A stretch of 64,000 nt of DNA from an uncultured Bacteroidales bacterium (GCA_964652315.1 CAZZBU010000001.1:84870-148869), one strand, 5' to 3'; positions 865-39,287 are shown, counted from the stretch's first letter. Made by a program: numbers and translations. Notes: a model not told the origin generated them from the sequence alone.

Positions 865-1992
865 TTATGGGGACATTAAAGCGTTATAAGTGTTCTCAAT
901 AAACCCATAAGGGTAGCGATCAAAGGTTGCTTCAGTGCCAAGTAATATAATAATGTCTTGTTCAAGTATTTTTTCCTTAATATTCATTTGTTTTACCGGC
1001 TTGTTTTCAGGGTATGCCTGTCTAAAGTAGTACCAAAAGCCACCTGTATCAAAACTATTTGTTGGTAACCCCATGTTATACAGTCCCCAATAGAAGCTAT
1101 CACCAATAACCAATACTTTAGGTTTTGTAGCCGTTGAATCAGGACTCCATCGGAATTTTGGATAAGCCATTTTTGGCGAAGGCAATTGATACAGCAGGTT
1201 TAAACTATGACCGATATCGTAATCCCCTTTTTTTATATCGCCGGTGATTTCAATATCTGTGATTTCTAAGTTTATCAAATTGGTATTTCTTAAATCTTCA
1301 ACATATCTGATTAGTGAATCAGCTACTTTAACCATTCCATAATAACTCCAGTGTATGCCGTATTTGGGATAAAGCATATACCTTGATGTATCTTTGGCAT
1401 TTACAAACCATAAATTAAAGTCGATGCATGGAATATTGTTTTCCATAGCCAGTTTCTTGAAATACTGTTGATTTGTAATTTTTGCCTTTTGGTTCTGGTA
1501 TTCCTCCGGAAAATATTCAGGATAAAACGATCCCTTACCTGCTGCCAGTCCAACGATAATATCAATGCCGTGTTTTTTCAGGGAATCGCGGATAACAGCA
1601 AGTTTATCAACTTTGATTTTGATGGAATCTTTGCCCAAAAAATCAGTGCCATTATAGGCTTTAATATAATTCATTTCGTACAGGTAGTTTTCTTTACCGA
1701 CTACCACCCCGGCTGCACTTACTTTTCCAAAAAGTGAATACTGAATTTGGTTGTGCAAGCGGATTAAAAAGGGCCGGAATCCGATATTATCTTTTGTTAC
1801 CTCGGTCAGGTTGTTTTGGTAATTGCCAGCGAGCCATTCACCCAGCGATAGCGTATCTTTTTGTGTACTTACAAAATAGCCTTTTAGGTTGTTAGGTTTA
1901 AATACTTTAAATTCTCCCTGTATTGCCGGTAACACCAAAACGATGATGATTACAGCAAACAGGATTTTATATGTGTTTTGTTTCCTTTCCAT
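865..1992 (-). CDS. SGNH/AlgJ/DltD-like periplasmic acyl-transfer accessory protein
   Basis: N-terminal signal anchor. VLVIGDSFYWG (GDS block) and YGIHWSYYG motifs. Lies 5 bp downstream of the MBOAT gene on the same strand. Confidence 0.6.
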   Translation of the reverse strand: MERKQNTYKILFAVIIIVLVLPAIQGEFKVFKPNNLKGYFVSTQKDTLSLGEWLAGNYQNNLTEVTKDNIGFRPFLIRLHNQIQYSLFGKVSAAGVVVGKENYLYEMNYIKAYNGTDFLGKDSIKIKVDKLAVIRDSLKKHGIDIIVGLAAGKGSFYPEYFPEEYQNQKAKITNQQYFKKLAMENNIPCIDFNLWFVNAKDTSRYMLYPKYGIHWSYYGMVKVADSLIRYVEDLRNTNLINLEITDIEITGDIKKGDYDIGHSLNLLYQLPSPKMAYPKFRWSPDSTATKPKVLVIGDSFYWGLYNMGLPTNSFDTGGFWYYFRQAYPENKPVKQMNIKEKILEQDIIILLGTEATFDRYPYGFIENTYNALMSP

Positions 1993-1997
1993 TTATA

Positions 1998-3425
1998 CTA
2001 AAATCTGAAATATATAAAGGGATTAAAGCCTGATGATACTATATAGCTGGCTGACAGCGTTAACAGGATGACAGACATAAGTATATTCGATAAGAGTTGT
2101 CCGCTTTTATAATCTGACTTATAATAGAAATAATGTTCGGCTTTTTCCCCTAATTTAAAAAGGGTTATAAAAGAAAATATAACAGCAATGCCCAGGCTGA
2201 ATAAAAATTCGTTCTTGTTTGTTAGATTAAAGCTGTTGCCCGAAAATGAAAACATTTGTTTAATATAGGTTACCGCACTGCGTAATTCCTCCACTCTGAA
2301 AAAAACCCACCCCACAAGTGTTACAAAAAATGTAAAAGCGATGCTGATAGATTTACCGCTTTTATCGAGTATTTTTAATAAAAACAATCGGTCAAGAATG
2401 AGAAATAATCCATGAAAAGCACCCCAGATGATGAAATTCCAGGATGCCCCATGCCACAATCCACTAATCAGAAATACAATCCACAGATTAAGATATAACT
2501 TAGCCGGTGTTACCCGGTTACCTCCAAGCGGTATGTATAGGTAATCTTTCATCCACCTGCCGAGTGTAATGTGCCATCTGCGCCAGAATTCGGTGATGCT
2601 GCGCGAACGGTAAGGATTATTAAAGTTTTCAGGAAAAGTAAACCCAATCATCCGGCCAATGCCAATGGCCATATCCGAATATCCGCTGAAATCAAAATAT
2701 ATCTGCATGGCATAGCCAAGTGAAGCCATCCAGGCAGCCAAGGTGGATATCTCATCGGGTGGTATGGAATATAAGGCATCTACACCCTCACCAACACTGT
2801 TGGCAATGAGGGCTTTTTTTGCCAGCCCGATGCAAAACCGTTGAAACCCGAGAATTCTGTTTAGCAGCGTTTCATTGTTTTTCCTGTTTATTATCTGATC
2901 CGCAATGGAGTTAAACCGAATGATGGGACCGGCGATTAATTGTGGAAACATCAGAATATACACTAGATAATCCGATAGTTTATGAAGGGGCTTATGAATA
3001 TTCCGGTATACATCCACAGAATACGTGATGGATTGAAATGTGAAAAATGAAATACCAACCGGCAGGGCCACATTTGTCCAATGTATTTTATTGGCACCAG
3101 ATATTTCAAGAATGCTGTTCAAATTATCTATAAAAAAATTGAAATATTTAAAATATGCAAGAATCCCTACATTGATGAAAAGTGAAAATATGAGCAGTAT
3201 TTTTTTTGATTTTCTTTGATTTGTCCGGTGCATGGCATCAACCAAATAATAGTTTGCTGTCATTGAAGCAAGGACGAGAAAAATAAATTTAGGCGCACCC
3301 CAGGCGTAAAACAACACGCTAAATATCAAAACGATAACATTTTTTATTTTTTCCGGGCTTAGATAATATAGAATCAGAAAGAGCGGTAAAAAATAGAAAA
3401 GAAATATAACACTGCTAAATACCAT
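1998..3425 (-). CDS. MBOAT-family membrane O-acyltransferase (AlgI/DltB/PatA-like)
   Basis: Polytopic protein. WRRWHITLGRWMKDYLYIPLGGNR and GLWHGASWNFIIWG motifs, including the conserved His. Confidence 0.85.
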   Translation of the reverse strand: MVFSSVIFLFYFLPLFLILYYLSPEKIKNVIVLIFSVLFYAWGAPKFIFLVLASMTANYYLVDAMHRTNQRKSKKILLIFSLFINVGILAYFKYFNFFIDNLNSILEISGANKIHWTNVALPVGISFFTFQSITYSVDVYRNIHKPLHKLSDYLVYILMFPQLIAGPIIRFNSIADQIINRKNNETLLNRILGFQRFCIGLAKKALIANSVGEGVDALYSIPPDEISTLAAWMASLGYAMQIYFDFSGYSDMAIGIGRMIGFTFPENFNNPYRSRSITEFWRRWHITLGRWMKDYLYIPLGGNRVTPAKLYLNLWIVFLISGLWHGASWNFIIWGAFHGLFLILDRLFLLKILDKSGKSISIAFTFFVTLVGWVFFRVEELRSAVTYIKQMFSFSGNSFNLTNKNEFLFSLGIAVIFSFITLFKLGEKAEHYFYYKSDYKSGQLLSNILMSVILLTLSASYIVSSGFNPFIYFRF

Positions 3426-3609: not shown

Positions 3610-4509
3610 ATGGATGGGTTAAGCATTCTAATACCTGTATACAACGAAAAAGGATCCATAGAATCCACATTGGATAACATTTCCAGTGTGATGGAGTCTT
3701 CATCTATCAATTTTGAGATCATTGTCATTAACGATGGTTCTACCGACGGAACAACAGAACTGTTAAATGGAAGAAGAGATTCGGCTGATGTTAGAGTGAT
3801 TACACATTCAGTTAATAAAGGATATGGTGCTTCATTGAAGACAGGGGTAAAACATTCAAAATATACCAGCATTGCTATTACAGATGCAGATGGTACATAT
3901 CCAAATCATAAAATACCAGAGTTATATCATGAGCTGGGAACATACGACATGGTGATTGGGGCACGGGCGTTTAAGAGTTTACCTCGGAAGACCAAACCGG
4001 CAAAATGGATGATATTAAAACTGGCAAATTATATTGCAAAGGAGGATATACCGGATATCAATTCTGGGTTACGTTTGTTTCGAAAAAACTCTTTCATTCC
4101 ATTTTTACCTATTATTCCTGATGGTTTCTCCCTTACAACTACAATTACGCTAGGAATGTTGACTGGTGGTTTTGATGTAGCTTTCGTGCCAATTGAATAT
4201 TATTGCCGTGAAGGAAAATCAAAGATACAACCGATTCGCGATACTTTGCGTTTTTTGAAATTGATACTCAAAATAGGGCTTTATATTGCTCCCTTAAAGA
4301 TTTTTGTGCCCTTCGGGATTTTTGTGTTCCTATTAGGAATGTTTTGGGCGGTATTCTCATATCTTGTCCTGGGTAGATTTGCAGATACCAGTACAATTGT
4401 GATTATTATGACGTCACTTCAAATCATGCTTTTGGCATTGATTGCCGAATTAATAAACCACCGGACACAAAACTATTATAAGAAAACAGTGGATTCTTAT
4501 TCTGAATAA
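3610..4509 (+). CDS. Family-2 glycosyltransferase, polyprenyl-phosphate sugar transferase-like
   Basis: LSILIPVYNE start, VINDGSTDGT and TDADGTYP motifs. Two C-terminal TM helices. Confidence 0.8.
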   Translation: MDGLSILIPVYNEKGSIESTLDNISSVMESSSINFEIIVINDGSTDGTTELLNGRRDSADVRVITHSVNKGYGASLKTGVKHSKYTSIAITDADGTYPNHKIPELYHELGTYDMVIGARAFKSLPRKTKPAKWMILKLANYIAKEDIPDINSGLRLFRKNSFIPFLPIIPDGFSLTTTITLGMLTGGFDVAFVPIEYYCREGKSKIQPIRDTLRFLKLILKIGLYIAPLKIFVPFGIFVFLLGMFWAVFSYLVLGRFADTSTIVIIMTSLQIMLLALIAELINHRTQNYYKKTVDSYSE

Positions 4510-4513
4510 AGAT

Positions 4514-5851
4514 ATGAGTTTGCAAGGCGAAAAGCTTATTAAATCAGTAGTTAATCAGGGATTATGTACACATTGTGGAACGTGTATAGCTTTAGCCCAG
4601 GGCAAGCTTGGGATTGCATCAGATGATGAAGGGATAATTCCCAAAATAGAGGGCGATGGAATAATTGAAAATATTGTCTACGATGCTTGCCCGGGTAAAG
4701 GCTTGAATTATCCGGAACTTTTTTTACAGGTTCAGAAGAGCCTTCCTGATAATTTTATGATTGGCCCCTATCTGGAAGGATATATCGCCTATTCCAATGA
4801 TGAAAGCATTCGAAGACAGGGGGCTTCAGCCGGAATCCTTTCACATGTGTTGATTCATCTCTTAGAATCAGGAAAAATACAGGGTGCAATTGTTTGTAAA
4901 ATGGACGAAGAAAAGCCCTGGAACCCTAAAGTATATATTGCAGGTACAAAAGCAGAAATCCTTGAATCTGCTCAGAGTATCTATCAACCGGTGCCGGTTA
5001 ACCTGATTCTTAAAGATACTGCAAAGCACAAAGGTACACTGGCAATGGTCGGTTTGCCGGATCAGCTAGCTTCAATTAGATATTTACAAAAGAAGGAACA
5101 TCCATCAGTAAAAAATATCGCTTATTTAATCGGACCTTATGTGGGTATAAACATGACAGTTAGGGCTGTGCATAGTTTTATACGGTCAAATGGAGTGAAA
5201 AACCTTGACGCCATTAAATCTCTGGATTATCGGGCAGGCGAATGGCCCGGATATCTTAAAATCGTCACAAAAGACCATCGTGTGTTTAAAGCAGAAAAGT
5301 TCTATTATAATTATCTTCTACCTTTTTATGCAACAAGGCATTCCTTGTTATCAGTCGATTTTTCCAACGAACTTGCGGATATTTCGGTAGGTGACGCCTG
5401 GCATCCTGCCTTTGAAAAAGAACGGAAAGGTTTTTCTGTTGTAGTGATTCGTTCCAGTAAAGGCAGGGAGATATTTGATCAATTAAAAACTGATGCATCC
5501 ATAAATGCAGAAAAGCTGGAACCGGCAGATGTGCTCGACATGCACGGACACATGTTCGACTTCAAGAAGCGAGGGGCTTTTATCCGTATAAAATTTAGAA
5601 AGCTGTTCTTTCGGCATTGTCCTGATTACGGATATGTGCCTGAAAAGATAAGTGTTTCAAGGTATTTTGTTGAAATTTTCATTTGGGGTGTATTTCTGCT
5701 CTGTCAGAACAGAATGGCCCGTACACTGGTAAGATATATTCCTGTGAATGTTATCGGTTATGTATTTAATAAAATACGTATAGGTTGGAAATCTGTCTCT
5801 AAACCAACGAAAAGAAAAGGGATTAAAGATCAAGTGTTTCGACTAACATAA
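4514..5851 (+). CDS. Coenzyme F420 hydrogenase/dehydrogenase beta subunit-like (FrhB/FdhB family) protein
   Basis: N-terminal CTHCGTC cysteine motif. QGASAGILSHVLIHLLESGKIQGAIV and SIYQPVP N-domain signature. MVGLPDQLASIRYL C-domain signature. Confidence 0.6.
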   Translation: MSLQGEKLIKSVVNQGLCTHCGTCIALAQGKLGIASDDEGIIPKIEGDGIIENIVYDACPGKGLNYPELFLQVQKSLPDNFMIGPYLEGYIAYSNDESIRRQGASAGILSHVLIHLLESGKIQGAIVCKMDEEKPWNPKVYIAGTKAEILESAQSIYQPVPVNLILKDTAKHKGTLAMVGLPDQLASIRYLQKKEHPSVKNIAYLIGPYVGINMTVRAVHSFIRSNGVKNLDAIKSLDYRAGEWPGYLKIVTKDHRVFKAEKFYYNYLLPFYATRHSLLSVDFSNELADISVGDAWHPAFEKERKGFSVVVIRSSKGREIFDQLKTDASINAEKLEPADVLDMHGHMFDFKKRGAFIRIKFRKLFFRHCPDYGYVPEKISVSRYFVEIFIWGVFLLCQNRMARTLVRYIPVNVIGYVFNKIRIGWKSVSKPTKRKGIKDQVFRLT

Positions 5852-9341: not shown

Positions 9342-11495
9342 ATGAAAGAGTATACTACCAAGCAAATTAACAATATTCTTTTGTGCGGGAATGCAAGCTC
9401 AGGAAAAACAACGCTGGCCGAGGCCATGTTGTTTCTTGGAGGGGTTATCGACCGCCGTGGGGATGTAACGAGTAAAAATACCGTTTCGGACTATAACGAA
9501 ATAGAACACGAAAACGGTAACTCAGTGTATTCAACCGTACTTTATACTGAATACAACAATAAAAAAATTAACATACTTGATACCCCGGGAGCAGATGATT
9601 TTGTTGGTGGACTGGTTTCTTCCCTCTCTGTTGCTGACCTGGCCGTGATGTGTATCAATGCTGCCAACGGCGTGGAGGTAGGTACTGAAATTCACAGCCG
9701 CTACACAGAAAAATTCGAAAAGCCCCAGATATTTGTTATCAACCATGTAGACTCAGAGAAGGCCAACTTTGAAAAATCCATGGAGATGCTGAAGGAACGT
9801 TTTGGCGGAAATGTGGTTGCTGCCCAGTTTCCTGTGGCTGTTGGGCAGGATTTTGATGCTGTCGTCGACCTGATAACCATGAAAATGTATAAGTATAGCG
9901 GTGATAGCGGAAAACCAGAGATAACTGATATTCCGGCTGATCAAATGGACCAGGCTGAAGAACTCAGGAACGAACTCATCGAAAAAGCTGCCGAGAGTGA
10001 TGAAAGCCTTATGGAACTGTTCTTTGAGAACGAAACCCTGACCGAGGATGAAATGCGTAAAGGCCTGAAAGCCGGTTTGCTCACCCGTGGTATTTTCCCG
10101 GTATTCTGTACTTCGGCTAAAAAGAATTTTGGCGTGGCCCGTCTCATGGAGTTTATCACCAATGTGGCACCAGCTCCTGACGAAGTACCTGCCCCAAAAG
10201 ATGTAAATGGGAACGAAGTAGCTATTGACGCTTCAGGGAGTGTGGCCCTGTTTATGTTTAAGACATCCATCGAATCCCATATCGGTGAAGTAAATTATTT
10301 CAAGGTATATTCAGGTACGGTAAAGGAAGGTATGGACCTTGTAAATGCACAGACAGCGAACAAGGAACGTTTGTCACAACTGTATGTTTCAGCCGGTAAA
10401 AAACGCGATAAAGTCTCTTCTTTTGTGGCAGGAGATATCGGAGCAGCCGTAAAACTTAAGGCTACCAAAACAAATCAGACCCTATATGCTGGTAAAGAAG
10501 TGAAATTCCCGGCCATTAATTTCCCTGAGCCAAAATTCAGAACAGCCGTTAAGCCAGTGAATGAAGGTGATGAAGAAAAACTGGGGGAAGCTCTGAACCG
10601 CATGCATGAAGAGGATCCAACCGTAATTGTTGAATATTCAAAAGAACTGCGCCAGATTATTCTTTCGGGGCAGGGAGAATACCACATCAATATCGTAAAA
10701 TGGCACCTTGATAATATTTTTAAAGTTGACATCGAATTACTTCCGCCAAGGATTCCCTACCGCGAAACCATTACAAAATTTGCACAAGCCGATTATCGGC
10801 ATAAAAAGCAGTCAGGAGGTTCTGGTCAGTTTGGAGAAGTTCATATGATTATTGAACCTTATAACGAAGGCGATAAGCCCAAGAATATGTTCAAAATCGA
10901 TGGAAAAGAAATGAAACTTTCTGTCCGTGGCGAAGAAGAACATCCTCTGTCCTGGGGCGGAAAGCTTATGTATTACAACTGTATTGTAGGTGGTTCAATT
11001 GATGCCCGTTTTATGCCTGCCATCCTCAAGGGGATTATGGAAAAAATGGAACAAGGGCCACTTACCGGTTCTTATGCACGCGATATTTCCGTGTATGTAT
11101 ATGATGGTAAAATGCACCCTGTTGACTCCAACGAAATTTCGTTTAAGCTTGCCGGTAGGAATGCCTTTAGCATGGCATTTAAAAAGGCAGGTCCAAAAAT
11201 CCTTGAGCCGGTATATGAAGTTGAGGTTTGGGTACCATCCGACCGCATGGGTGACGTAATGAGCGATCTGCAGGGACGTCGGGGTATGGTGATGGGTATG
11301 ACCAGCGAAAAAGGGTTTGAAAAAATCAAGGCAAAAGTACCCCTGGCAGAGATGAATAAATATTCTACTTCATTGAGTTCTATGACTGGCGGCCGTGCCA
11401 TGTATACCATGAAATTTGATGAGTATGCTGCCGTACCGGGCGATGTTCAGGAAGAATTGCTGAAAGCCCACGAAGCAGAACAGGATGAGGAATAG
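9342..11495 (+). CDS. Elongation factor G paralogue (EF-G2-like) with degenerate GTPase motifs
   Basis: 717 aa, collinear with EF-G domains I-V. P-loop is GNASSGKT. G3 is DTPGADDF (no His). G4 is NHVD. Confidence 0.85.
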   Translation: MKEYTTKQINNILLCGNASSGKTTLAEAMLFLGGVIDRRGDVTSKNTVSDYNEIEHENGNSVYSTVLYTEYNNKKINILDTPGADDFVGGLVSSLSVADLAVMCINAANGVEVGTEIHSRYTEKFEKPQIFVINHVDSEKANFEKSMEMLKERFGGNVVAAQFPVAVGQDFDAVVDLITMKMYKYSGDSGKPEITDIPADQMDQAEELRNELIEKAAESDESLMELFFENETLTEDEMRKGLKAGLLTRGIFPVFCTSAKKNFGVARLMEFITNVAPAPDEVPAPKDVNGNEVAIDASGSVALFMFKTSIESHIGEVNYFKVYSGTVKEGMDLVNAQTANKERLSQLYVSAGKKRDKVSSFVAGDIGAAVKLKATKTNQTLYAGKEVKFPAINFPEPKFRTAVKPVNEGDEEKLGEALNRMHEEDPTVIVEYSKELRQIILSGQGEYHINIVKWHLDNIFKVDIELLPPRIPYRETITKFAQADYRHKKQSGGSGQFGEVHMIIEPYNEGDKPKNMFKIDGKEMKLSVRGEEEHPLSWGGKLMYYNCIVGGSIDARFMPAILKGIMEKMEQGPLTGSYARDISVYVYDGKMHPVDSNEISFKLAGRNAFSMAFKKAGPKILEPVYEVEVWVPSDRMGDVMSDLQGRRGMVMGMTSEKGFEKIKAKVPLAEMNKYSTSLSSMTGGRAMYTMKFDEYAAVPGDVQEELLKAHEAEQDEE

Positions 11496-14868: not shown

Positions 14869-14993
14869 TTATGTTGGACGCAGAGCTGCGCTAAGATTTA
14901 ATGAAGAAAATGTAAGCCGAATACGCAAAGATTCGCTAAGATTATTAAAGAAACACAAAAAATAATAATATATACCCAAATAAAATACGTAAA

Positions 14994-15164
14994 ATGACTG
15001 AGAACGAGATTTCAAATAAAATAATTGGTTATGCAATTGATGTCCATAAGTTAGTTGGCACGGGACTGCTAGAATCCGGTTATCAAAAGTGTCTGGAATA
15101 TGAATTGATCAATCATGGTTTTAGGGTTAAATCAGTGTTGCCACAATTTGTAAATAATTTATGA
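14994..15164 (+). pseudogene. Truncated GxxExxY-family (PD-(D/E)XK-like) gene remnant, 56 codons
   Basis: Translation is MTENEISNKIIGYAIDVHKLVGTGLLESGYQKCLEYELINHGFRV..., which contains the GLLESGY motif. It stops after about 45% of the usual family length of roughly 125 aa. Confidence 0.7.
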
Positions 15165-15166
15165 TA

Positions 15167-15174
15167 TAACTTTG
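15167..15174 (+). promoter_or_regulatory. Candidate -7 promoter box (TAACTTTG) inside the right arm of the cassette
   Basis: Exact TAnnTTTG match 53 bp upstream of the ATG at 15227. Confidence 0.3.
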
Positions 15175-15226
15175 CGTAACTCAGCGAATACTTCGCGCAA
15201 CTCTGCGTAATACAAAAAACATTCAT

Positions 15227-15670
15227 ATGAAGAAAAACATCTCCTCCCGGCGAAAATTTATGCGTATCATGACCGCTGCCTTGCCAGCATCATTTCTTGC
15301 TAATTTTTCCGTAAACGCTTCATCAGCAAAATCACCCATGAAAAAAGTGGACGGTACCTTTCGTCATCATGTGTATTTCTGGCTGAAAAATCCGGATAGC
15401 AAAGAGGACCGAAAGCTGTTTATGAAAAACCTCACCAACTTCTTAAAAGAGGTAGAAGTAATCCTTTCTGTGCATGTGGGCGAACCAGCCGGCACACCTC
15501 GTGATGTGGTTGACAACAGCTATCAGTACGATCTGCTTGTAAACTTTAAAAACAAAGAAGACCAGGACATTTACCAGGAACATCCGGCACATATAAAATT
15601 TGTTGATGATACTGCGCACCTCTGGGCAAAAGTACAGGTGTACGATTCCATTTCGGTCTGGCCGGAGTAA
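15227..15670 (+). CDS. Dabb-family (stress-responsive alpha/beta barrel) protein with twin-arginine signal
   Basis: SRRKFMRIMTAAL Tat-type signal. FRHHVYFWLKNP...YQEHPAHIKFV Dabb signature. Confidence 0.7.
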   Translation: MKKNISSRRKFMRIMTAALPASFLANFSVNASSAKSPMKKVDGTFRHHVYFWLKNPDSKEDRKLFMKNLTNFLKEVEVILSVHVGEPAGTPRDVVDNSYQYDLLVNFKNKEDQDIYQEHPAHIKFVDDTAHLWAKVQVYDSISVWPE

Positions 15671-15748
15671 CCTTTGTTTCAGTCATTTTAATTTGTGTTT
15701 TGACATTTATTTGTCATTTGTTTTTTGTTACTTGGTGTTTTCTCACCA

Positions 15749-16405
15749 ATGGTAGATTTTATGGATATTGTACCCCGAACAGCAAACTATATAAAAAAGG
15801 AACTGCAGGGCGAAGGCACCGGTCACGACTGGTGGCATGTGGAGCGGGTTTGGAAATCCGCCAAAACGATTGCCAGGAGCGAAAATGCCAATCTGCTTGT
15901 GGTTGAACTTGGTGCGCTGCTTCATGATATAGCCGACCATAAATTTCATAACGGTGATGATACCATTGGCCCAAAAATGGCCCGCCAGTGGTTGGAACAA
16001 AACGGTCAGCCCCGGGACATCATTGAAGCTGTGGAACATATCGTGGAGCATGTGTCCTTCAAAGGCGCCGGTGTAGAAAACCCCATGCAGTCCCTTGAAG
16101 GAAAAATTGTGCAGGATGCCGATCGCCTCGATGCCATGGGCGCCATAGGCATTGCACGGACCTTTGCTTATGGAGGCAGTAAAAACAGGGAGATATACAA
16201 TCCCAATATTAAACCGGAACTTCATCAAACTTTTGATGCCTACAAAAAAAGCACCGCTCCAACCATCAATCATTTTTACGAAAAGCTTTTATTGCTGAAA
16301 GATGGCATGTATACCCAAACCGGAAAAAAGATGGCCGAAGAACGCCACCGCTTTATGGAGGAATACCTGCAACGTTTTTATGGGGAGTGGGAAGGAGAAT
16401 GGTAA
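15749..16405 (+). CDS. HD-domain phosphohydrolase (YedJ-like)
   Basis: GHDWWHVERV and LLHDIADHK HD motifs. QDADRLDAMGAIGIAR motif. The start is ambiguous (ATG at 15749 or 15761; the track's ORF opens at TTG 15725). Confidence 0.75.
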   Translation: MVDFMDIVPRTANYIKKELQGEGTGHDWWHVERVWKSAKTIARSENANLLVVELGALLHDIADHKFHNGDDTIGPKMARQWLEQNGQPRDIIEAVEHIVEHVSFKGAGVENPMQSLEGKIVQDADRLDAMGAIGIARTFAYGGSKNREIYNPNIKPELHQTFDAYKKSTAPTINHFYEKLLLLKDGMYTQTGKKMAEERHRFMEEYLQRFYGEWEGEW

Positions 16406-16476
16406 TTGGAAACTCAAAGCAGGAAACAAAACTTAAGTCAAAATCCATGGGATTTTAGCAGTTGACATTAAGGTAT

Positions 16477-16612
16477 TTTTCGCAGGTGGCTGCAGATATT
16501 TTCGCAGAATTAGGCAGAAGCGTTTGATTATGATATGATGTTTATGTGAGATTAACGCCGTTAGCGATCCTCAGCGTATTCTTTTGCGAGAACAACCGAT
16601 CCTCTGAGAGAA
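16477..16612. repeat. Cargo-less copy of the CGCAG/CTGCG-unit inverted-repeat element
   Basis: Left arm has four 11-bp units (TTTTCGCAGGT GGCTGCAGATA TTTTCGCAGAA TTAGGCAGAAG). Right arm units (GTTAGCGATC CTCAGCGTATT CTTTTGCGAGAA ... CTCTGAGAGAA) match unit for unit with the right arm at 15171-15210. Confidence 0.45.
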
Positions 16613-16626
16613 ACACGTAATAATTT

Positions 16627-18291
16627 TTAAAACTGAAAATAAATAAACGGCTGCAAATCTGCTGAAACAGACTGGTAAATAATAAATACAACTACGGCGG
16701 AGATGAGGATTTTTGCCCAGATGGGTGTACCAATGAACCAGTCGCGGTACCAGACTTTTGTTCTTTCTGGCAGCCAGTGTACAATAAGTCCGAAGGCCAT
16801 CACAAGGAACACTTTATAATAAGCGCCTATCATGGTCGGTACATTTGCCCAGTCGAAGTTGCCAAACACCTGATTCAGTAAATCATATGTACCCTGCATG
16901 GTTTCACCGCGGAACCAGATGCGCGTAAAGGTGATGAACGTAAAGGTGAAAAATATTTTCCAGGTATTGGCCAGCCAGTGGGTGCTGTGTTCGTAGGGGC
17001 TTACCTTACGCCAGAATTTATACACGACCAGCCCCAGTCCGTTTAAACCGCCCCAAAGCACAAAGGTCCAGCTTGAGCCGTGCCATAAACCGCCCAGCAG
17101 CATGGTCATCATCAGGTTGATGTTGGTGGATACCGTGAGTTTCATTCCCGGAAAAATGCGCGTCAATAGATAAATTACCAAAATGGCACCTCCAAAAATG
17201 GGAAACAGCCATAGATTACCAGCCAGAAGAACGATAAAAGTAAGAATCACCCCCAGGCTAATGTAAGTAAACGCACTGCCACCGCGGTTGCCACCCATAG
17301 GGATGTACAGGTAATCCTTTAGCCACGATGACAAGGACATGTGCCAGCGTTTCCAGAATTCACCCACGTTTTTGGCTTTGTACGGTGAGTTGAAGTTTTT
17401 GGGCAAGTGAAAGCCCATGAGCAGGGCCACGCCAATGGCGATATCCGTATATCCTGAAAAGTCGCAATAGACCTGCAATGAATATCCATACAGTCCCATC
17501 AGGTTTTCAAAACCCGAATAGGATGCCGGATTGGCAAATACACGGTCGATGAGGTTGACCGCAATATAATCACCCACAAACATTTTCTTCATCAACCCCT
17601 TAAGAATAAGGTACATGGCCAGCCCAAATTCCTCCATGCTCAGCGAGTAATTTTTGTATAACTGGGGAATAAAATCCGCTGCCCGCACAATAGGACCGGC
17701 AACAAGCTGGGGGAAGAACGACACATAAAAGCCGAAATCAAGCAGGTTACGGACAGGTTCCACCTTATCGCGGTACACATCAATGGAATAGCTGATGGTC
17801 TGAAAAGTAAAAAAAGAGATGCCAACCGGTGGCAGGATTTGCACAATATCGAAATGCGTGCCCAGCAGCAGGTTCGACCACTTGGCAGCATGAGTAACCA
17901 CTTCGAGGTTGGTTTCAAAGATGGTGTTTATGGTGGTGGTGAAAAAATAATCGTATTTGAAAAAACCAAGGACCGAAAGGTTGAGAAAAATGCTTAGTGC
18001 AAGCCAGAGCTTTTTGGTGAGTCTTTTTTGTGATCCGTAGATGGCCTGCCCGATGTAAAAATCCGTAACTGTGGAGAAGAGCAGGATAAAGAAAAACATC
18101 CCACCGGTTTTGTAGTAAAAGAAAAGGCTTATAAGGAAAAGGTAACCGTTGCGTAAAGATTTATTCTTATATATAAAGGAATAAAACAAGAGTACGACAG
18201 CAAAAAAGGCCCAAAAGAAGAACTGTGTAAAAATTAGCGGCTTCTCCGGGTTGAAGAAAAGAATGTCTTTTATGTGCTGCAGGAGGTCCAT
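16627..18291 (-). CDS. MBOAT-family membrane O-acyltransferase (PatA/AlgI-like)
   Basis: WKRWHMSLSSWLKDYLYIPMGGNRG and GGLWHGSSWTFVLWG motifs. Polytopic. Confidence 0.85.
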   Translation of the reverse strand: MDLLQHIKDILFFNPEKPLIFTQFFFWAFFAVVLLFYSFIYKNKSLRNGYLFLISLFFYYKTGGMFFFILLFSTVTDFYIGQAIYGSQKRLTKKLWLALSIFLNLSVLGFFKYDYFFTTTINTIFETNLEVVTHAAKWSNLLLGTHFDIVQILPPVGISFFTFQTISYSIDVYRDKVEPVRNLLDFGFYVSFFPQLVAGPIVRAADFIPQLYKNYSLSMEEFGLAMYLILKGLMKKMFVGDYIAVNLIDRVFANPASYSGFENLMGLYGYSLQVYCDFSGYTDIAIGVALLMGFHLPKNFNSPYKAKNVGEFWKRWHMSLSSWLKDYLYIPMGGNRGGSAFTYISLGVILTFIVLLAGNLWLFPIFGGAILVIYLLTRIFPGMKLTVSTNINLMMTMLLGGLWHGSSWTFVLWGGLNGLGLVVYKFWRKVSPYEHSTHWLANTWKIFFTFTFITFTRIWFRGETMQGTYDLLNQVFGNFDWANVPTMIGAYYKVFLVMAFGLIVHWLPERTKVWYRDWFIGTPIWAKILISAVVVFIIYQSVSADLQPFIYFQF

Positions 18292-18350
18292 ATGTTATTG
18301 CTGATGCTTATTTTTCATTTTGCGAATATAATGGATTTTATTAGCATTGG

Positions 18351-18399
18351 GCAGGGAGCATGGTGCATGGAGCAGGGAGCAAAGGGTATAGAGAAGCTC
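18351..18399. repeat. Heptad repeat array (7 x 7 bp, GCAnGGA-type)
   Basis: Units are GCAGGGA GCATGGT GCATGGA GCAGGGA GCAAAGG GTATAGA GAAGCTC. Confidence 0.7.
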
Positions 18400-18517
18400 C
18401 TATCAACAAAAAAAATACTTTTACCGGGATTAGTTTTTTCTTGAAAACGCGCTGTAATTAATTGTATCATGCTTAAATAATTTTGCCTAATAATATTAAT
18501 ATCTTGTAATTCAGGTA

Positions 18518-18886
18518 CTATTTTGCGTTGTTTAAAAGATATTTTCTAAAATTGGTGATTCGAGAACTTAAAATCTGCAATCTTTCGAAGAGGCTTTGGC
18601 GTGTATGATCCAATAAAAGATTTCTACGTTCTAGTAGAATGAGCATGTTAGCACATTCGAAGATTGACTTCCTGGCAATAACAAGGAAATTTGCAAAACC
18701 TTTATTTGAAAAAGAACCGCTTCCTTCCGCGATATTATTTGAAATGCTTAAGGCAGCTCCACGAAGCTGTTCACCAAACCGGTATAATTTTTTATTGCTA
18801 ATATCATCAGCGATATTAAACATTTCATCAGCAAGAACAATTCTATCTTGCCATATAGTTAAATCCTCAAATCTGAATTGTTTCAT
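18518..18886 (-). CDS. Four-helix-bundle protein (23S rRNA intervening-sequence protein family; Avd-like fold)
   Basis: 122 aa. FEDLTIWQ...QLRGAALSISNNIAEGSG...F.NFL.IA.GS..E family signature. Confidence 0.85.
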   Translation of the reverse strand: MKQFRFEDLTIWQDRIVLADEMFNIADDISNKKLYRFGEQLRGAALSISNNIAEGSGSFSNKGFANFLVIARKSIFECANMLILLERRNLLLDHTRQSLFERLQILSSRITNFRKYLLNNAK

Positions 18887-18930
18887 GGTTATTTATTTTA
18901 GTTTATCAAAATTATAATCTCAAAATCGAT

Positions 18931-19007
18931 ACCCTATTCCCTTCGCTCCTTGCTGCATATTCCAAGCCCTCTACTCTCTATTCTCTGCCCCATGCATGCC
19001 CTTTGCC
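18931..19007. repeat. Heptad repeat array (11 x 7 bp), inverted relative to 18351-18399
   Basis: Units are ACCCTAT TCCCTTC GCTCCTT GCTGCAT ATTCCAA GCCCTCT ACTCTCT ATTCTCT GCCCCAT GCATGCC CTTTGCC. The array overlaps the last 9 codons of the SGNH gene. Confidence 0.7.
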
Positions 19008-20273
19008 CACTGTCTTTTGCTTTTCCAGATGTTGCCCATAAGCCTTGAGTATTGCATTATGCAGCAGGTCCGCCTTAAACATATACCCCTTCCATGTAAA
19101 ATGTATCTTGTCATAACGTGCCAGGCCAAAACGGTACCAGACGAAAATGGAGTTTAATCCTCCCATGATTTCATAAAAATCCCAGATGCCGGCATTATAC
19201 TCCTCGGCCAGTTCATAAATTACCTGCTGTATTTTTGCCGTGTTTTTATTGATGTATTTCCGGTACAAATAGCTATCGTTTGGAACAGTAAGCAACAGTG
19301 CTGTATTGGGTGCCGCCTTCAGAATGTTTTGAATGAGGGTATCGTAATTCTGTTTGTATACATCCCGGTCGAACCGGCGGGTGTTTCCGTCGTTGGTACC
19401 AATGGAAATTACTACCATATCCGGCTGAACAGCTTTAAGATGAGGCACGAAAAGTTCACTTTTCAGGTAGGAGGGAAGGCTGGCACCGTTAATGCCAATG
19501 GCGTGATATACCAGGCCCGGATCATCAGTCAACAATTCAATTCCGTATAGCTGAAAATAATGTTGGGTACTGTCAATTTGAAGCATTTGCAGCTTAAGCG
19601 TGTCGGTATAATCCCTTAAAGTAAACTCCGAATATCCCAGTTCCTCATTGACCCACATGGAATTAACATTATGAATTGGTGAGGGAATGACCATGTAGCT
19701 TTGCGTATCTATTTCATGATACACCCGTACCCGGTTAAAGTCATAATGTTCCAAAGAATCAATATTCAGGATTATGGTTATCGTGGCCTCCTTGTCAGTC
19801 GTTCGTCCAGTGATACCGGTTAGTCCCAGTTTCAGGTTGTTGATGTTCTGCACGCTCCGCCTGGTTTGCCATTCACCGGTAAACATTCCCTTGTAGTTGG
19901 CGGGATTGTTGGTTTTGGCCATACGGTAAGGGAAAAGTACCCCCCTTCCCCCATTGCCACCGGGCATTATATGTTGCAGGCGTTGCCTGAGCCTGTGGGT
20001 ATATATATCGGCCTGGATATGAGAACCTCCGAGGTGGACAACATTTAATCGTCCTTCGCCTTTAAAGTTGATGCTGTCGTAGCCATTGAAAAATCGCTCA
20101 AAGGCCAGGGAGTCACCAGGAAACTTAATGATGTTTTTTTTATAATGCACAAAATCGTAATACGGCAGGTCAAGCGGGTAATCCGGTGCAAACGGCTGCT
20201 GACCAATTGCTGTATATGAGGTTATAATAATCAGAAATATGGTATTTATCTTTTTAGGAAAACTAAATATCAT
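18978..20273 (-). CDS. SGNH/GDSL-family hydrolase or acyltransferase (PatB/Ape-like candidate)
   Basis: Signal peptide. VVHLGGSHIQ (block I-like), ISIGTNDG (block III) and DKIHFT (block V DxxH) motifs. Confidence 0.7.
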   Translation of the reverse strand: MIFSFPKKINTIFLIIITSYTAIGQQPFAPDYPLDLPYYDFVHYKKNIIKFPGDSLAFERFFNGYDSINFKGEGRLNVVHLGGSHIQADIYTHRLRQRLQHIMPGGNGGRGVLFPYRMAKTNNPANYKGMFTGEWQTRRSVQNINNLKLGLTGITGRTTDKEATITIILNIDSLEHYDFNRVRVYHEIDTQSYMVIPSPIHNVNSMWVNEELGYSEFTLRDYTDTLKLQMLQIDSTQHYFQLYGIELLTDDPGLVYHAIGINGASLPSYLKSELFVPHLKAVQPDMVVISIGTNDGNTRRFDRDVYKQNYDTLIQNILKAAPNTALLLTVPNDSYLYRKYINKNTAKIQQVIYELAEEYNAGIWDFYEIMGGLNSIFVWYRFGLARYDKIHFTWKGYMFKADLLHNAILKAYGQHLEKQKTVGKGHAWGRE

Positions 20274-20309
20274 ATTAAATTAATTGCATTATATATTCTA
20301 TTCTAAATT

Positions 20310-20489
20310 GCTATTTAAATGTTAATAGCATTTTGCACCTATGCACCTTTGCAAGCCATTTCCATTTCAAACTCTTTCGGCGTCTTTGCGTCTTTGCGAG
20401 CCATTTCCATTTCAAACTCTTTCGGCGTCTTTGCGTCTTTGCGAGCCATTTCTGCTTCAAGCCTTTTTAGCGCCTTTGCGTTCACTCCT
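20310..20489. repeat. 45-bp tandem repeat, 4 copies (2 identical central copies, 2 degenerate flanking copies)
   Basis: GCCATTTCCATTTCAAACTCTTTCGGCGTCTTTGCGTCTTTGCGA occurs at 20355-20399 and identically at 20400-20444. Diverged copies are at 20310-20354 and 20445-20489. Confidence 0.9.
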
Positions 20490-33656: not shown

Positions 33657-34370
33657 TTATAAATTGTCTGTTGTCCAGTTCGTTGTATTCTCTAATTCTC
33701 CGGTGTCATCATAGGTGGTGTAGTATCCACTTCCATCACTGTTCCATACAAACTCATAAACCGGAACGTTGTTCTCGAAATACTTTGCATAACCCGAATC
33801 ATCCGGACTACCTTTTATTTCCAGGTTGAATCCATCCTCAGAGTTTGACCAACTCAGGACAACGCTATCATCGCCCAATATTTCCCAGTTATACTCGTAG
33901 ATGAAATTGCCTGTTGTACTTTCGGTGTAATCATACACCCTTAGCCATCCGCTTGAACCGTCCTTTTGTTGTTCAGCAGAGATATAGTCTACCCTGCCGT
34001 TCCCAAAATCAACATCCATTTCCCACCCGTAGGTGTTCGAAGTTTCGGTGTAGTTTAACCATACTGATTGGCCTCCGTTGGTCCAAAAATAAACGCCATC
34101 GTCATATTCAGCACCTTCAACAGGATCAAAATACGCAAAATAAGAGTTGATGCTTTTTATTTGCGCAACATAGGCACTTACCTGAAGGGCATACCAGGTT
34201 TGTGAATTAGCAAGGTTTTCAGGCACATTAATCTCGTCAAGTTTGCTTTGAATTTCAGGCGAAACTACTTCGGGCGGTTTGTTGTTATCGTCGTCCTCAT
34301 CTTTCGAACATCCTGTAATGATAACCAACCCGAATAAAAACATGAATGAAATGCGCAATAAATGTTTCAT
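33657..34370 (-). CDS. Lipoprotein, probably surface-exposed (function unknown)
   Basis: Lipobox VIITG-C (Cys21, nt 34308-34310) followed by SKDEDDD. Rich in W, Y, N and G residues. Confidence 0.7.
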   Translation of the reverse strand: MKHLLRISFMFLFGLVIITGCSKDEDDDNNKPPEVVSPEIQSKLDEINVPENLANSQTWYALQVSAYVAQIKSINSYFAYFDPVEGAEYDDGVYFWTNGGQSVWLNYTETSNTYGWEMDVDFGNGRVDYISAEQQKDGSSGWLRVYDYTESTTGNFIYEYNWEILGDDSVVLSWSNSEDGFNLEIKGSPDDSGYAKYFENNVPVYEFVWNSDGSGYYTTYDDTGELENTTNWTTDNL

Positions 34371-34538
34371 AATTGTACTGATTTAATAATGATAATTTGA
34401 CAAATAAAGATAGCAAAAATTTGTACATACCACGTGATAACAAAAAGGTTGGATTATTAATAGAATAATGAGCTTTCCATGAGCATATTATCATTCATCT
34501 CTCAGAAGGCGATGAAAATAAACCTCAGACCAAAAATA

Positions 34539-35186
34539 TCAGAAAACATAGCCAATGGAAACACTTGCTGTTAACAAGCTACCCGGGCCATACGTTTTCC
34601 ATCTGAGATTATCCGAAAAAAACTCCCAGGAATCATTTACATCGCGCCGGTAAGTCCTGTCATTGGTTGAAACAGTCCTTGGCAGCAATCTGGATAGCGA
34701 TTGTAGACCAAGGGAAAAATCAAAAACAATATTTTTAAATTGTTCCGTACACCCCAAATTTAAAGCCCCTCCCAATGCAAAAAAGTTTTTTTGGAGTTTC
34801 AGGTTACCCTGTTCCTGAGAAACATAGTTTACATCAGCGGTGAAATATCCACCTCCAAGGTTATACTGGATGTATGAATTATGAAAGCCCGGCAAGAAAT
34901 TAAATTTTTTGAAATGCACAAATGCTTTTATCCCCGAAGGTGGTTCATAAAGCAATAATGTAATGGCTGAAGAGGCATTCCAGTAAGCATGGATGTTCAT
35001 TCCCAGGAAGCCGTATTGATTAACCCTGCTGTCAATGGAAAATATCGTCCTGCTGTTTAAAAATGGTTTCAGAGGAGTTACACTAATTATTGTACCATGG
35101 TTATTAAAAACAGTGCTATCCTGTGATTTTAAATTTAGGCAGATTAATGCAATTGTTGTGATTATTAAAAAACGTTTCATATACAT
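34539..35186 (-). CDS. Predicted outer-membrane beta-barrel protein, paralogue A (function unknown)
   Basis: Signal peptide. Alternating amphipathic strands. C-terminal ...SIGYVF (terminal Phe). Shares TPLKPF, ALGG, SLGxQxLxRxLP and GPG motifs with the next gene. Confidence 0.5.
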   Translation of the reverse strand: MYMKRFLIITTIALICLNLKSQDSTVFNNHGTIISVTPLKPFLNSRTIFSIDSRVNQYGFLGMNIHAYWNASSAITLLLYEPPSGIKAFVHFKKFNFLPGFHNSYIQYNLGGGYFTADVNYVSQEQGNLKLQKNFFALGGALNLGCTEQFKNIVFDFSLGLQSLSRLLPRTVSTNDRTYRRDVNDSWEFFSDNLRWKTYGPGSLLTASVSIGYVF

Positions 35187-35208
35187 GGTTTAATTGTTTT
35201 TGTGCCAT

Positions 35209-35880
35209 TTAAAAATTATAGTATACTGTGAAAGACAAATCAATCATCTTTCCGGGACCATTTCTGTACCATAAATGATTGTCGGAGAATTCCGACGTAC
35301 CTGCCTTATACAATGTGTATTCCTGTCCATTGTGGTTAATGCGTTTGGGTAATATCCTTGGCAGGCATTGATACCCCAGGCTTACATTCATTGATATTTT
35401 TCCTGCAGTGTATTGGTATCCGCCTTCGACCATTCCACCAAGCGCCATAAAATTTTCCCGACGGGATATTTTTTCATATATTGTATAACTGTCAGCCTGA
35501 TTTGCATAGGACACCATTTGTGAAAATAAACCACCGCCAAAGTTTAATTGCGTATAAAAACCCTGAAGGTTATATGTGGCTGAATGCATCCTGATGTGTA
35601 CATACAACCTGAATCCATAATCTTCCGGGTCGTAAAACACAATTTCAGATGGGGTGTAATTTTTAAATATTCGGTAGAAGGTGATATTTGTACCCCAGCT
35701 ATGTGTTTTGTTTCTGTGGGTAAGAATGGAAGCACGCAATTCATTTTTAAAAAACGGCTTCAACGGAGTAATACCAAGGGTAACTTTTCTATCCTCCCGA
35801 AGCTCTTGTCCTGATAATTGTGTTCCGGTGAACACAAAAAACAAAAAGGTTGTATAAAACAGTTTTCCTATATGTCGCAT
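35209..35880 (-). CDS. Predicted outer-membrane beta-barrel protein, paralogue B (function unknown)
   Basis: Start moved to ATG 35880 (MRHIGKLFYTTFLFFVF signal peptide). C-terminal ...TVYYNF. Paralogous to 34539-35186. Confidence 0.5.
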   Translation of the reverse strand: MRHIGKLFYTTFLFFVFTGTQLSGQELREDRKVTLGITPLKPFFKNELRASILTHRNKTHSWGTNITFYRIFKNYTPSEIVFYDPEDYGFRLYVHIRMHSATYNLQGFYTQLNFGGGLFSQMVSYANQADSYTIYEKISRRENFMALGGMVEGGYQYTAGKISMNVSLGYQCLPRILPKRINHNGQEYTLYKAGTSEFSDNHLWYRNGPGKMIDLSFTVYYNF

Positions 35881-37181: not shown

Positions 37182-39287
37182 ATGAGTTTAAAGTATACCA
37201 GAAATATTGGTATTATGGCACATATTGATGCCGGTAAAACCACAACAACAGAAAGAATTCTGTTTTATACCGGTATCACCCATAAGATAGGCGAAGTTCA
37301 CGACGGTGCTGCTACCATGGATTGGATGGTTCAAGAACAGGAAAGGGGCATCACCATTACCTCAGCTGCAACAACCACCTTTTGGAAATATAACGATCAG
37401 CAATATAAAGTTAACATCATTGATACTCCCGGTCACGTTGATTTTACCGTGGAAGTAGAGCGTTCATTGCGCGTACTTGATGGTGCTATTGCTGTTTTTT
37501 GTGCTGTAGGTGGTGTCGAACCGCAATCAGAAACTGTATGGCGTCAGGCCAATAAATATAATGTACCCCGATTAGCGTTCGTTAATAAGATGGACCGTAC
37601 CGGGGCCGATTTCTTCAGTGTTGTTAATCAAATTCAGGATAAGCTCGGGGCAAATCCGGTTCCCATTCAAATACCTATTGGCTCAGAAGAAAACTTTTCG
37701 GGTATTGTCGACCTGATTGAGCGTAAAGCCATTGTTTGGGTTGAAGACGAAACCCTTGGAATGAAGTACGAATACCGCGAGATACCGGAAGATATGTTAG
37801 ATGAAACCGAGGAATGGCGCGAGAAGCTAATCGAAGCTGTTTGTGTTTCCGATGAAGAATTACTCGAGCGTTTCCTCGAAAACAGAGATTCAATAACAGT
37901 TGAAGAGTTTATGGAGGCTACCAGAAAGGCTACCATTAACATGGAAATTGTTCCTGTGCTTTGTGGTTCTGCATTTAAAAACAAAGGTGTTCAACGCCTG
38001 CTTGATGCTGTTACGGCTTTATTACCGAGTCCATTGGATGTTGGTTCAGTAAAAGGCATTGATCCTAAAACGGATAATGAAGCAGAAAGGAAACCTGAGC
38101 AATCAGAACCGCTTTCAGCCCTGGCTTTTAAAATTGCTACCGACCCCTATGTCGGACGCCTGGTTTATCTCAGAGTATATTCCGGTATATTAAAGTCTGG
38201 CAGTCAGGTGTTTAACCCCAGAACTGGTAAAAAGGAACGGATTTCCAGAATTTACCAAATGCACGCAAACAAGCAGAATCCCAAAGAAGAAATTTTTGCA
38301 GGAGATATATGTGCCGGTGTTGGATTTAAAGATCTCAAAACCGGAGATACCTTATGTGATATAGACAAGCCAATTTCCCTTGAAACCATGAGTTTCCCGG
38401 AGCCTGTAATTAGCGTTGCAATTGAACCTAAAACACAGAAGGATCTTGATAAGCTGGGCAGTGCTTTGGCAAAACTAGCCGAGGAGGATCCTACATTCCA
38501 GGTGAAAACAGACGATACTACCGGTCAGACAGTGATAAGCGGAATGGGAGAACTACACCTTGAGATTCTCGTTGACCGCCTTAAGCGCGAGTTTAAAGTA
38601 GAATGCAATCAGGGTGCACCACAGGTAGCTTACAAAGAAGCGCTGTTATCAACTCTTGATCATCGCGAAGTATTTAAGAAACAAACTGGTGGCCGTGGTA
38701 AATTTGCAGATATCAGCATTGAAATCGGACCGGCAGACGAAGGTGTGGCAGGTCTTCAATTTGTTGATGCAATTAAAGGTGGTAATATTCCACGTGAATA
38801 CATTCCTTCGGTTGAAAAAGGATTCAAAGAAGCAATGGCTAACGGTCCGCTGGCCGGATATCCGGTTGATAATCTTAAGGTTACACTTAAAGATGGGTCA
38901 TACCATCCGGTTGATTCTGATCAGTTGTCCTTCGAGATTTGTGCCAAACAGGCTTTCCGTGCTGCGGCTAAAAAAACCAAAGCAGTATTGCTCGAGCCGG
39001 TAATGGCAGCCGAAGTTGTTACACCCGAAGAATATATGGGCGATATTATTTCTGATTTTAACCGCCGCCGTGGTAAGGTTGAAGGTATGGAATCCAAAGC
39101 TGGTGCACGCGTTATTAAAGCACATGTGCCCCTGGCAGAAAAATTCGGATATGTTACCGTATTGCGTACCATCACATCGGGCCGTGCCACTTCAACAATG
39201 GAATTTTCTCATTATGAAGAAGTGCCAGAAAACATTGCCACGGAAATCATTGAAAAAATACACGGAAAAAAAGTAGCAAATTCTTAA
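37182..39287 (+). CDS. fusA: Elongation factor G (canonical)
   Basis: [17 protein letters not shown] and NKMD motifs are all intact. Lies between rpsG and rpsJ. Confidence 0.97.

Follow-up and report, generated by a model that had tools for sequence, protein, structure and literature searches.

Intervening sequences (IVSs) located in helix 25 or 45 of 23S rRNA in Leptospira, Coxiella, Brucella and Xanthomonas can carry an open reading frame (ORF) of the S23p four-helix-bundle (4HB; PF05635) family inside a stem-loop of terminal inverted repeats. They are transcribed within the host transcript and their ORF is sometimes decaying; in Coxiella, the 4HB ORF of the IVS occupies the loop of a 28-bp stem, and RNase III cuts this stem (PMC4990558). 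Genes of this family have also been seen wedged into cas operons (PMC3936711), between gmk and nadD in Flavobacterium columnare (PMC5524665) and in rRNA insertions of the candidate phyla radiation (CPR). Here, we analyse 64,000 nt of DNA from an uncultured Bacteroidales bacterium (GCA_964652315.1, CAZZBU010000001.1:84870-148869; hereafter ‘the window’, with positions counted from its first letter), in which four neighbouring intergenic spacers between 14.9 and 20.5 kb, loci A to D, are occupied by short-period repeats. Locus C encloses an intact 4HB gene and locus A a truncated gene of the GxxExxY family. We consider it an even call that loci A to D belong to, or are remnants of, two related kinds of cassette of the rRNA-IVS type that are embedded in operons, each with arms specific to its cargo.

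The resemblance to ORF-bearing IVSs lies in the shared S23p/PF05635 protein family and in the placement of the gene within an inverted-repeat stem-loop. The host, however, is a spacer of a protein-coding operon, the arms are arrays of 7-nt units with a conserved core as opposed to a unique 28-bp repeat, there is a second cargo family (GxxExxY) with arms of its own, and excision by RNase III is something that we infer here. Locus C has the IVS protein family and a closing stem and lies outside rRNA, and it is thus best described as ‘IVS-like’ rather than as an IVS.

Repetitive extragenic palindromes (REPs), bacterial interspersed mosaic elements (BIMEs) and REP doublets forming hairpins (REPINs) are short imperfect palindromes present in many copies in intergenic spacers, and the gene for the REP-associated tyrosine transposase (RAYT), a Y1/HuH enzyme, is flanked by these repeats. 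The arrays described here are likewise intergenic imperfect palindromes, tandem or alternating, that flank a small gene with its own repeats, and within single contigs they can be multi-copy, with hairpins repeated in L175 and in L114 and three GxxExxY-type loci in the window. They differ in having periodic units of 7-11 nt rather than one palindrome of 20-40 nt, in flanking PF05635 or PF13366 genes that have many copies per genome, and in that no Y1/HuH transposase is found among the window ORFs scanned (for 36.2-53.5 kb, taken to be ribosomal-protein operons, the ORF scanned is that of L17). Integron cassettes are small promoter-less genes, co-oriented and served by an upstream promoter, each with an imperfect-palindrome site. 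Small size, absence of a promoter, co-orientation and an imperfect palindrome for each gene are all features of the loci studied here, but these have repeats on both sides and are scattered in housekeeping operons rather than gathered on one platform, with no attI and no integrase in the scanned ORFs.

Cyanobacterial short tandemly repeated repetitive (STRR) sequences are heptanucleotide repeats, and heptanucleotide simple sequence repeats (SSRs) occur in Bacteroidota and Cyanobacteria alike. Heptamer tandem repeats in general have been noted before (PMC4679880), and the long SSRs (LSSRs) of Mrazek 2007 and the TAACTGA repeats of PMC4679880 are similar to the arrays reported here in being intergenic 7-nt tandem arrays of variable copy number. 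They are described as direct arrays lacking cargo, whereas here inverted, co-adapted pairs surround a specific gene family. Our arrays do fall under the definition of a long SSR (a tandem unit of 5-11 nt with variable copy number), a definition that leaves the inverted pairing and the cargo specificity unexplained. The Avd protein of diversity-generating retroelements (DGRs) is a pentameric barrel similar to S23 proteins, and DGR RNAs have been screened for putative ‘Avd-binding stem-loops’ (10.1101/2023.10.23.563531). Avd offers an S23-like pentamer that works with a structured RNA whose upstream and downstream segments pair (10.1101/2023.10.23.563531), although no reverse transcriptase, template or variable repeat lies near the loci described here, and the window protein matches the IVS-type family. 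The combination of a gene with inverted arrays, or of arms with cargo specificity, was not found described in the open literature searched, most subscription journals lying outside it, and the design is apparently undescribed.

Anatomy of the four repeat loci

Tandem-repeat, inverted-repeat and motif scans confirm that repeats occupy the four spacers to which an earlier note on this DNA had drawn attention, at 14869-15226 (A), 16406-16626 (B), 18292-18977 (C) and 20274-20487 (D). The other spacers of the window are ordinary, as that note had also held: they carry no short-period repeats in a scan that included Tandem Repeats Finder (TRF), and no cluster of CGCnnAG or CTnnGCG motifs lies outside the four loci in the 64 kb. 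There are 63 spacers in all, and the four that are occupied fall inside seven consecutive ones (chance P ~0.002). The description of the loci as periodic repeats is accurate but incomplete, for around A and C the arrays form inverted pairs. Both small genes that the note had placed within these two loci are recovered by Pfam and TIGRFAM matches, and its remark that no recombinase is visible holds for the window ORFs scanned, which contain no transposase, integrase or reverse transcriptase.

Locus C is the intact example of its kind. Its 4HB gene (18518-18886, minus strand; 122 aa) matches PF05635 over the full length (E 1e-24), TIGR02436 (E 2e-23) and PDB entry 2GSC (XCC0516; E 1e-9); this uncharacterised protein is the only PDB match for 4HB, and PDB holds none for GxxExxY. 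The gene sits between the GDSL hydrolase and MBOAT genes and is co-oriented with the GDSL-MBOAT operon. Its downstream arm (18340-18395, minus strand) consists of 7-nt units that are C-rich on the sense strand, with a TRF period of 7 at 18343-18381, and its upstream arm (~18925-19006, minus strand) consists of 7-nt units that are G-rich on the sense strand and are the inverse of the downstream arm; the inverted-repeat partner of 18340-18395 lies at 18967-18996. In the minimum-energy RNA fold, 18340-18395 and 18925-18976 form a closing stem of ~45 bp around the 4HB gene (z -3.0). The upstream arm reaches across the stop of the GDSL gene (18978-20273) into its final ~9 codons, with 18978-19006 encoding the tail GKGHAWGRE and its stop. 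Because the tails of GDSL orthologues are unrelated to it, the heptamer array has been taken into the host reading frame, and the practical consequence is that arrays can lengthen host reading frames.

At locus A, a GxxExxY/PDDEXK_3 gene truncated to 56 aa (14994-15164, plus strand; deposited as MFW5657560.1, ‘GxxExxY protein’) covers positions 2-44 of the 117 in PF13366, the N-terminal third (E 4.6e-10), and also matches TIGR04256. It shares its strand with the flanking GT2 and Dabb genes. Upstream of it on the plus strand, four CGCnnAG units (‘R’; starts at 14879, 14889, 14924 and 14934) are arranged as two pairs within 14878-14943, and downstream, also on the plus strand, four CTnnGCG units (‘L’; starts at 15170, 15180, 15191 and 15201) follow one another with a period of 10-11 within 15168-15213. 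When the operon strand is folded as RNA, the arm at 14878-14943 pairs with 15185-15214 (z -2.25). We read locus A as a decayed GxxExxY cassette.

Loci B and D contain arrays and no gene. Locus B is a decayed R-L pair at 16476-16612, unassigned to a strand, between convergent HD and MBOAT genes; GCAG recurs at 16482, 16492, 16504 and 16514 (spacings 10, 12 and 10), followed by degenerate CTnnGCG-like units at 16561-16610. The GCAG chain is the only one in the window and did not arise in any of 300 shuffles. This is the weakest of the four loci, at which TRF and general repeat finding report nothing. Locus D (20334-20487, minus strand) has a 45-nt unit repeated 2.4 times at 20347-20452 with 98% identity (TRF). 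The unit is built of 8-nt GCGTCTTT / CTTTGCG sub-units, reading CGCAAAGA on the sense strand, and the array begins where the upstream GDSL gene ends, at its stop codon, and is without a complementary arm. In locus L182 of the comparative sample, a GxxExxY gene is flanked by these 8-nt R units. We assign B and D to the GxxExxY type, as arrays whose gene was lost or never present, so that A, B and D form one array family and C represents the 4HB type. Compound arrays also occur in L096 (~4270-4430), L098 (downstream of 3205) and L092 (1754-1789); their tandem unit of ~40 nt contains CTTTTGT units, and this two-level design is that of locus D, where 8-nt units are nested in a 45-nt unit.

Searches against described element classes were negative. 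Rfam, applied to 14.5-20.9 kb and to five related loci, gave no family and no rRNA, the sole match being a chance microRNA, and PADLOC returned no defence-family match for either cargo protein. A reading of the repeats as CRISPR was rejected, as their periods are 7-11 nt and they have no spacers.

Arms that follow the cargo family

A metagenome scan with the window 4HB protein gave 80 loci with 48-74% identity and unrelated gene contexts. By eye, nearly every 4HB gene in these is preceded by an array of heptamers rich in purines and in G, and followed by the complement of that array. For a census, 64 4HB genes were compared with 116 control genes on the same contigs. Period 7 is the best period on at least one side of 36 of the 64, compared to 12 of the 116 controls (p 6.6e-11), and when period 14 is also admitted there is an array upstream in 44/64 and downstream in 38/64. 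Array density is ~11-fold higher within 260 nt of 4HB genes than elsewhere. The arms have a median of 4 units, end ~41 nt before the start codon and begin again ~23 nt after the stop codon, and are G-rich upstream and C-rich downstream in 34/42. Their unit is RGRGCWN, whose three core positions are G (93%), G (95%) and C (88%), with the last two positions variable. Divergent 4HB subfamilies use other heptamers, for example GTGATGA/TCATCAC around 3409-3777 of L101.

The two arms of a locus are matched to each other. The alignment score of the upstream arm against the reverse-complemented downstream arm has a median of 29 at 4HB genes versus 18 at controls (p 8e-17), and the same consensus unit is found in both arms at 21% of loci, versus 4.4% of cross-locus pairs. 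A locus's own arm outscores 12 foreign arms in 19 of 75 cases, where 5.8 are expected (p 3e-7). The arm match within a 4HB locus goes beyond the family level.

The 4HB genes run in the same direction as their upstream neighbour in 66/68 cases and as their downstream neighbour in 58/65. The notion that they have a promoter of their own is unsupported, because the Bacteroidetes -7 promoter motif precedes 4HB genes (5/82) less often than it does controls (21/128). Orthologous copies in a conserved context have dN/dS values of 0.02-0.04, indicating that the protein is kept by selection. Identical cargo proteins are always found in the same genomic context, and one array differs by two units in length between strains that are ~99% identical. 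In L135, at ~5100-5110, a 4HB orthologue with the same flanks as those in L100, L111 and L109 has an in-frame stop, and its neighbours are under strong purifying selection.

For the second cargo family, the 56-aa fragment of locus A retrieved only itself when used alone, and an alignment with the fragment from L003 was used instead. The GxxExxY sample comprises 11 independent loci: window A, L003, L163, L165, L175, L182, L191, L201, L202, L204 and L205. All 11 have C[GA]CNNAG (R) units within 100 nt upstream of the start, with a total of 28 against 1.0 expected (p 9e-31), and CTNNG[CT]G (L) units lie downstream in six of ten, with a total of 19 against 0.7 expected. Often, the R units upstream form the 3′ half of a hairpin of L-loop-R layout, and in L175, which has tandem hairpins on both sides, the GxxExxY gene itself lies in the loop of a hairpin. 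The copies looked up are all co-oriented with at least the upstream neighbour, and most are truncated or frameshifted. The best 120 matches to an N-terminal GxxExxY profile (P0002-P0120) are all 36-98 aa long, for a family model of 116-117 positions, and in those cases in which the DNA was read, the remainder of the gene continues in a different frame or past a stop; decayed copies seem to be very frequent, and annotation often splits them into two ORFs. Viral contigs, scanned three times, gave 0, 0 and 1 loci, and this GxxExxY clade lies essentially outside them.

Arm type follows the cargo family, with 4HB genes accompanied by RGRGCWN and GxxExxY genes by CRCNNAG/CTNNGYG. The earlier note had proposed a census of arm and cargo co-occurrence, and the association is very strong, both for the 64 4HB genes relative to controls and for the 11 GxxExxY loci. 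Its suggestion of one loosely related class gives way to two cargo-specific classes with different arms. Its period of 10-11 is right for most GxxExxY-type arrays; the R/L period is 8 in L182 and in locus D of the window, and that of the 4HB arms is 7, so the argument from this period to helical phasing fails. The link to rRNA IVSs that it drew for both genes is in the literature for the 4HB family, and no such link for GxxExxY was found in the literature searched.

That the repeats are insertions into intergenic positions of an operon, as had been supposed, is borne out by ~80 loci of relatives (Bacteroidales, Draconibacterium, Maribellus and others) fetched with the MBOAT protein at 58-80% identity. 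Most of them keep the order SLT-GDSL2-GDSL1-MBOAT, with spacers of usually 20-120 nt, compared to 686 and 214 nt in the window; since the spacers of relatives are short, the repeat loci of the window are insertions. The window is identical to L001 and L002, and there is consequently no polymorphism usable there. In the closest relative, L003 (80% identity), a different truncated GxxExxY gene occupies the GDSL2-GDSL1 spacer, flanked by CTCAGCG/CGCAGAG hairpin arrays, and a CGCNGAG array directly follows the MBOAT stop codon, the same position as locus B. Short-period arrays without cargo also occupy these operon spacers in several other relatives, and the spacers are thus recurrent sites for arrays.

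Several observations in these relatives stand apart. In L011, a 75%-identical relative, the GDSL1-MBOAT spacer (9700-9900) has a G-rich array of GGGAATA-type heptamers and a 6-nt GGCAGW array and no 4HB gene; it is either a cassette relic or an independent array at the same site as locus C. In the GDSL2-GDSL1 spacer of Draconibacterium and Maribellus (L057 8582-8671, L070 8592-8658, L058, L067 and L068), up to ~13 GTTCAGR heptamers occur in one orientation, without a cargo gene or a complementary arm, and may extend into the annotated N-terminus of the downstream GDSL gene. An insertion of ~540 nt in the MBOAT gene of L072 (11290-11915), L075 and L081 was considered as a cassette and rejected; in L072, where it was read, it is an in-frame extra hydrophobic membrane segment.

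A cassette model and its alternatives

The cassette that we propose is a small promoter-less gene between two mutually complementary arrays of a family-specific short unit. The 4HB kind would have ~4 RGRGCWN units with period 7 upstream and their complement downstream, of which locus C would be the intact example; the GxxExxY kind would have CRCNNAG upstream and CTNNGYG downstream, or in adjacent hairpins, with a period of 8-11. The anatomy of the loci, the match of arm type to cargo, the shared orientation, the status of the loci as insertions, the polymorphism in array length and the selection acting on 4HB are observed; to these, the model would add RNA processing, protein binding and a mode of spread. 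The cassette would be transcribed by read-through from the host operon, and the arms would then pair to form a long, imperfect stem enclosing the cargo, in the manner of the 23S rRNA IVSs that encode 4HB proteins. Cutting of this stem by RNase III, as in 23S rRNA IVSs, could leave the host transcript functional. The conserved core of the unit would be the cognate binding site of the encoded protein, arrays would lengthen and shorten through slippage of units, and cassettes would spread or vanish via recombination between arrays. As the anatomy is that of ORF-bearing 23S rRNA IVSs, we take read-through, arm pairing and stem processing to be the likeliest way in which the host operon is spared. 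Cargo-less hairpins of the same units in relatives fold strongly, with z from -2.1 to -6.6.

A number of results weigh against this model. The arms are only ~81% complementary, G:U does not outnumber A:C among their mismatches on the sense strand (90 vs 110), and the duplex that the arms form in sense orientation has no significant advantage in stability over the antisense one; given this lack of a strand signal, nothing indicates that pairing was selected as RNA rather than DNA, or was not merely inherited. RNA from loci B and D folds no better than shuffles. As identical cargo was never seen at different sites, nothing points to recent movement. Some heptamer arrays lack any 4HB gene, namely 22 across 1.4 Mb of sequence from relatives and, among the metagenome loci, 34 of 129. 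The samples themselves call for caution, in that the metagenome loci were picked by similarity to the window 4HB, the GxxExxY set is small and biased to truncated copies, and the R/L motif was defined on the window and L003 and then counted in the other nine loci. The stem-processing part is tempered further by the conserved core and the cargo-specific units, which pairing does not need and which point instead to recognition by the encoded protein. From the conservation of this core at the sequence level, a protein-binding role of the arrays is possible.

This leads to a wider proposal that we advance tentatively, as possible though doubtful: 4HB and GxxExxY may be the protein halves of self-contained elements whose other half is the inverted pair of arrays of their own recognition units. 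The protein would bind or cut the arrays and so control or propagate the cassette, 4HB as a toroidal pentamer on ~4-5 heptamers and GxxExxY as a nuclease on hairpin arrays, and rRNA IVSs would be copies that landed in rRNA. Both families, 4HB (S23p/Avd-like) and GxxExxY, number dozens per genome in many Bacteroidota, Cyanobacteria and other bacteria. The design of a gene with its cognate arrays, present in most sampled copies, would thus offer a testable handle on the function of both families and on the origin and mobility of rRNA IVSs, which have been questions since ~1990. It names a nucleic-acid partner for binding and cleavage assays, predicts RNase III-type processing sites inside ordinary operons, and would explain why 4HB and GxxExxY genes are seen wedged into cas, cell-wall and housekeeping operons.

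The loci could instead be mobile elements acting at the DNA level, of the foldback-transposon or homing type, which we think unlikely. The arrays would then be terminal repeats or homology arms; the GxxExxY nuclease would cut array hairpins, with repair copying the gene into other arrays, and 4HB would use a factor acting in trans. This is favoured by the inverted, cargo-specific arms, which resemble transposon ends, by the lack of an RNA-strand signal in their mismatches, by the presence of cargo-less hairpins in several copies within single contigs (in tandem in L175, four copies in L114) and by the position of GxxExxY genes in hairpin loops or between hairpins; GxxExxY also belongs to a nuclease superfamily (PF13366; PMC3424549). 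Against it, identical proteins were never seen at two sites, pseudogenes make up most of the sampled GxxExxY copies, and the better conserved cargo is 4HB, for which no catalytic activity is known. Co-orientation with host transcription is near-absolute, which is unexpected unless selection filters insertions, and no target-site duplication was identified, without a systematic search and with array boundaries that are fuzzy.

Distinctly less probable is a role of the arrays in host regulation, in which the cargo or a host protein would bind them as phased or multimeric sites and control translation or stability of neighbouring genes, the complementarity of the arrays being incidental. Across very diverse loci, the 4HB unit keeps its G.GC core and the GxxExxY unit its C.C..AG core, which suits binding, as does the presence of ~4 units per arm given that the 4HB relative XCC0516 is a homopentamer. 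R arrays stop a few nucleotides before the GxxExxY start codon and are present downstream of MBOAT in both the window and L003, and for other bacteria it has been proposed that heptamer repeats by start codons act as regulator sites (PMC4679880). However, the period varies, such that helical phasing fails, binding alone does not require arms to be complementary in a locus-specific manner, and the arrays go with their cargo into unrelated operons rather than track particular host genes.

Lastly, ordinary slippage-prone simple repeats or REP-like terminators spread independently of genes – the outcome by which the earlier note's idea was to be refuted – are very improbable and strongly disfavoured by the census: heptanucleotide repeats are reported to be the most abundant long SSR category in most bacterial genomes (Mrazek 2007, as cited in PMC4679880), array length is polymorphic, and 22 of 24 strong arrays in the 1.4 Mb of relatives are heptameric with none of the 24 adjoining a 4HB gene, but the association with cargo, at the ~11-fold density given above, is extreme, the arms are inverted and co-adapted with a unit type that follows the cargo family, and none of the five terminator-like sites (a G+C-rich stem with a T-run) in 14-21 kb is inside any array.

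Neighbouring genes and further arrays

A cargo-less hairpin of GGAAGTG-type and ACATCCC heptamers is present in four copies within 7.6 kb of L114 (3850-3910, 4490-4544, 7290-7356 and 7402-7425), and its spread looks REP-like.

The window has a G+C content of 40%. Its first 23 kb encode glycosyltransferases, methyltransferases, two MBOAT acyltransferases with SGNH/GDSL partners and an SLT-LysM transglycosylase, and the remainder, apart from the presumed ribosomal-protein operons, includes parAB, cytochrome oxidase genes and housekeeping genes such as those for enolase and citrate synthase. The second MBOAT gene, paired with an AlgX-like SGNH gene at 865-3425, lies 13 kb upstream of the repeat loci and has ordinary spacers. 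An EF-G-like gene (717 aa) is located at 9342-11495, and a 701-aa ORF at 37182-39287 is in the usual position of fusA. On the minus strand at 33657-35880, Pfam at E 1e-5 matches none of three successive ORFs, which are 237, 215 and 223 aa long.

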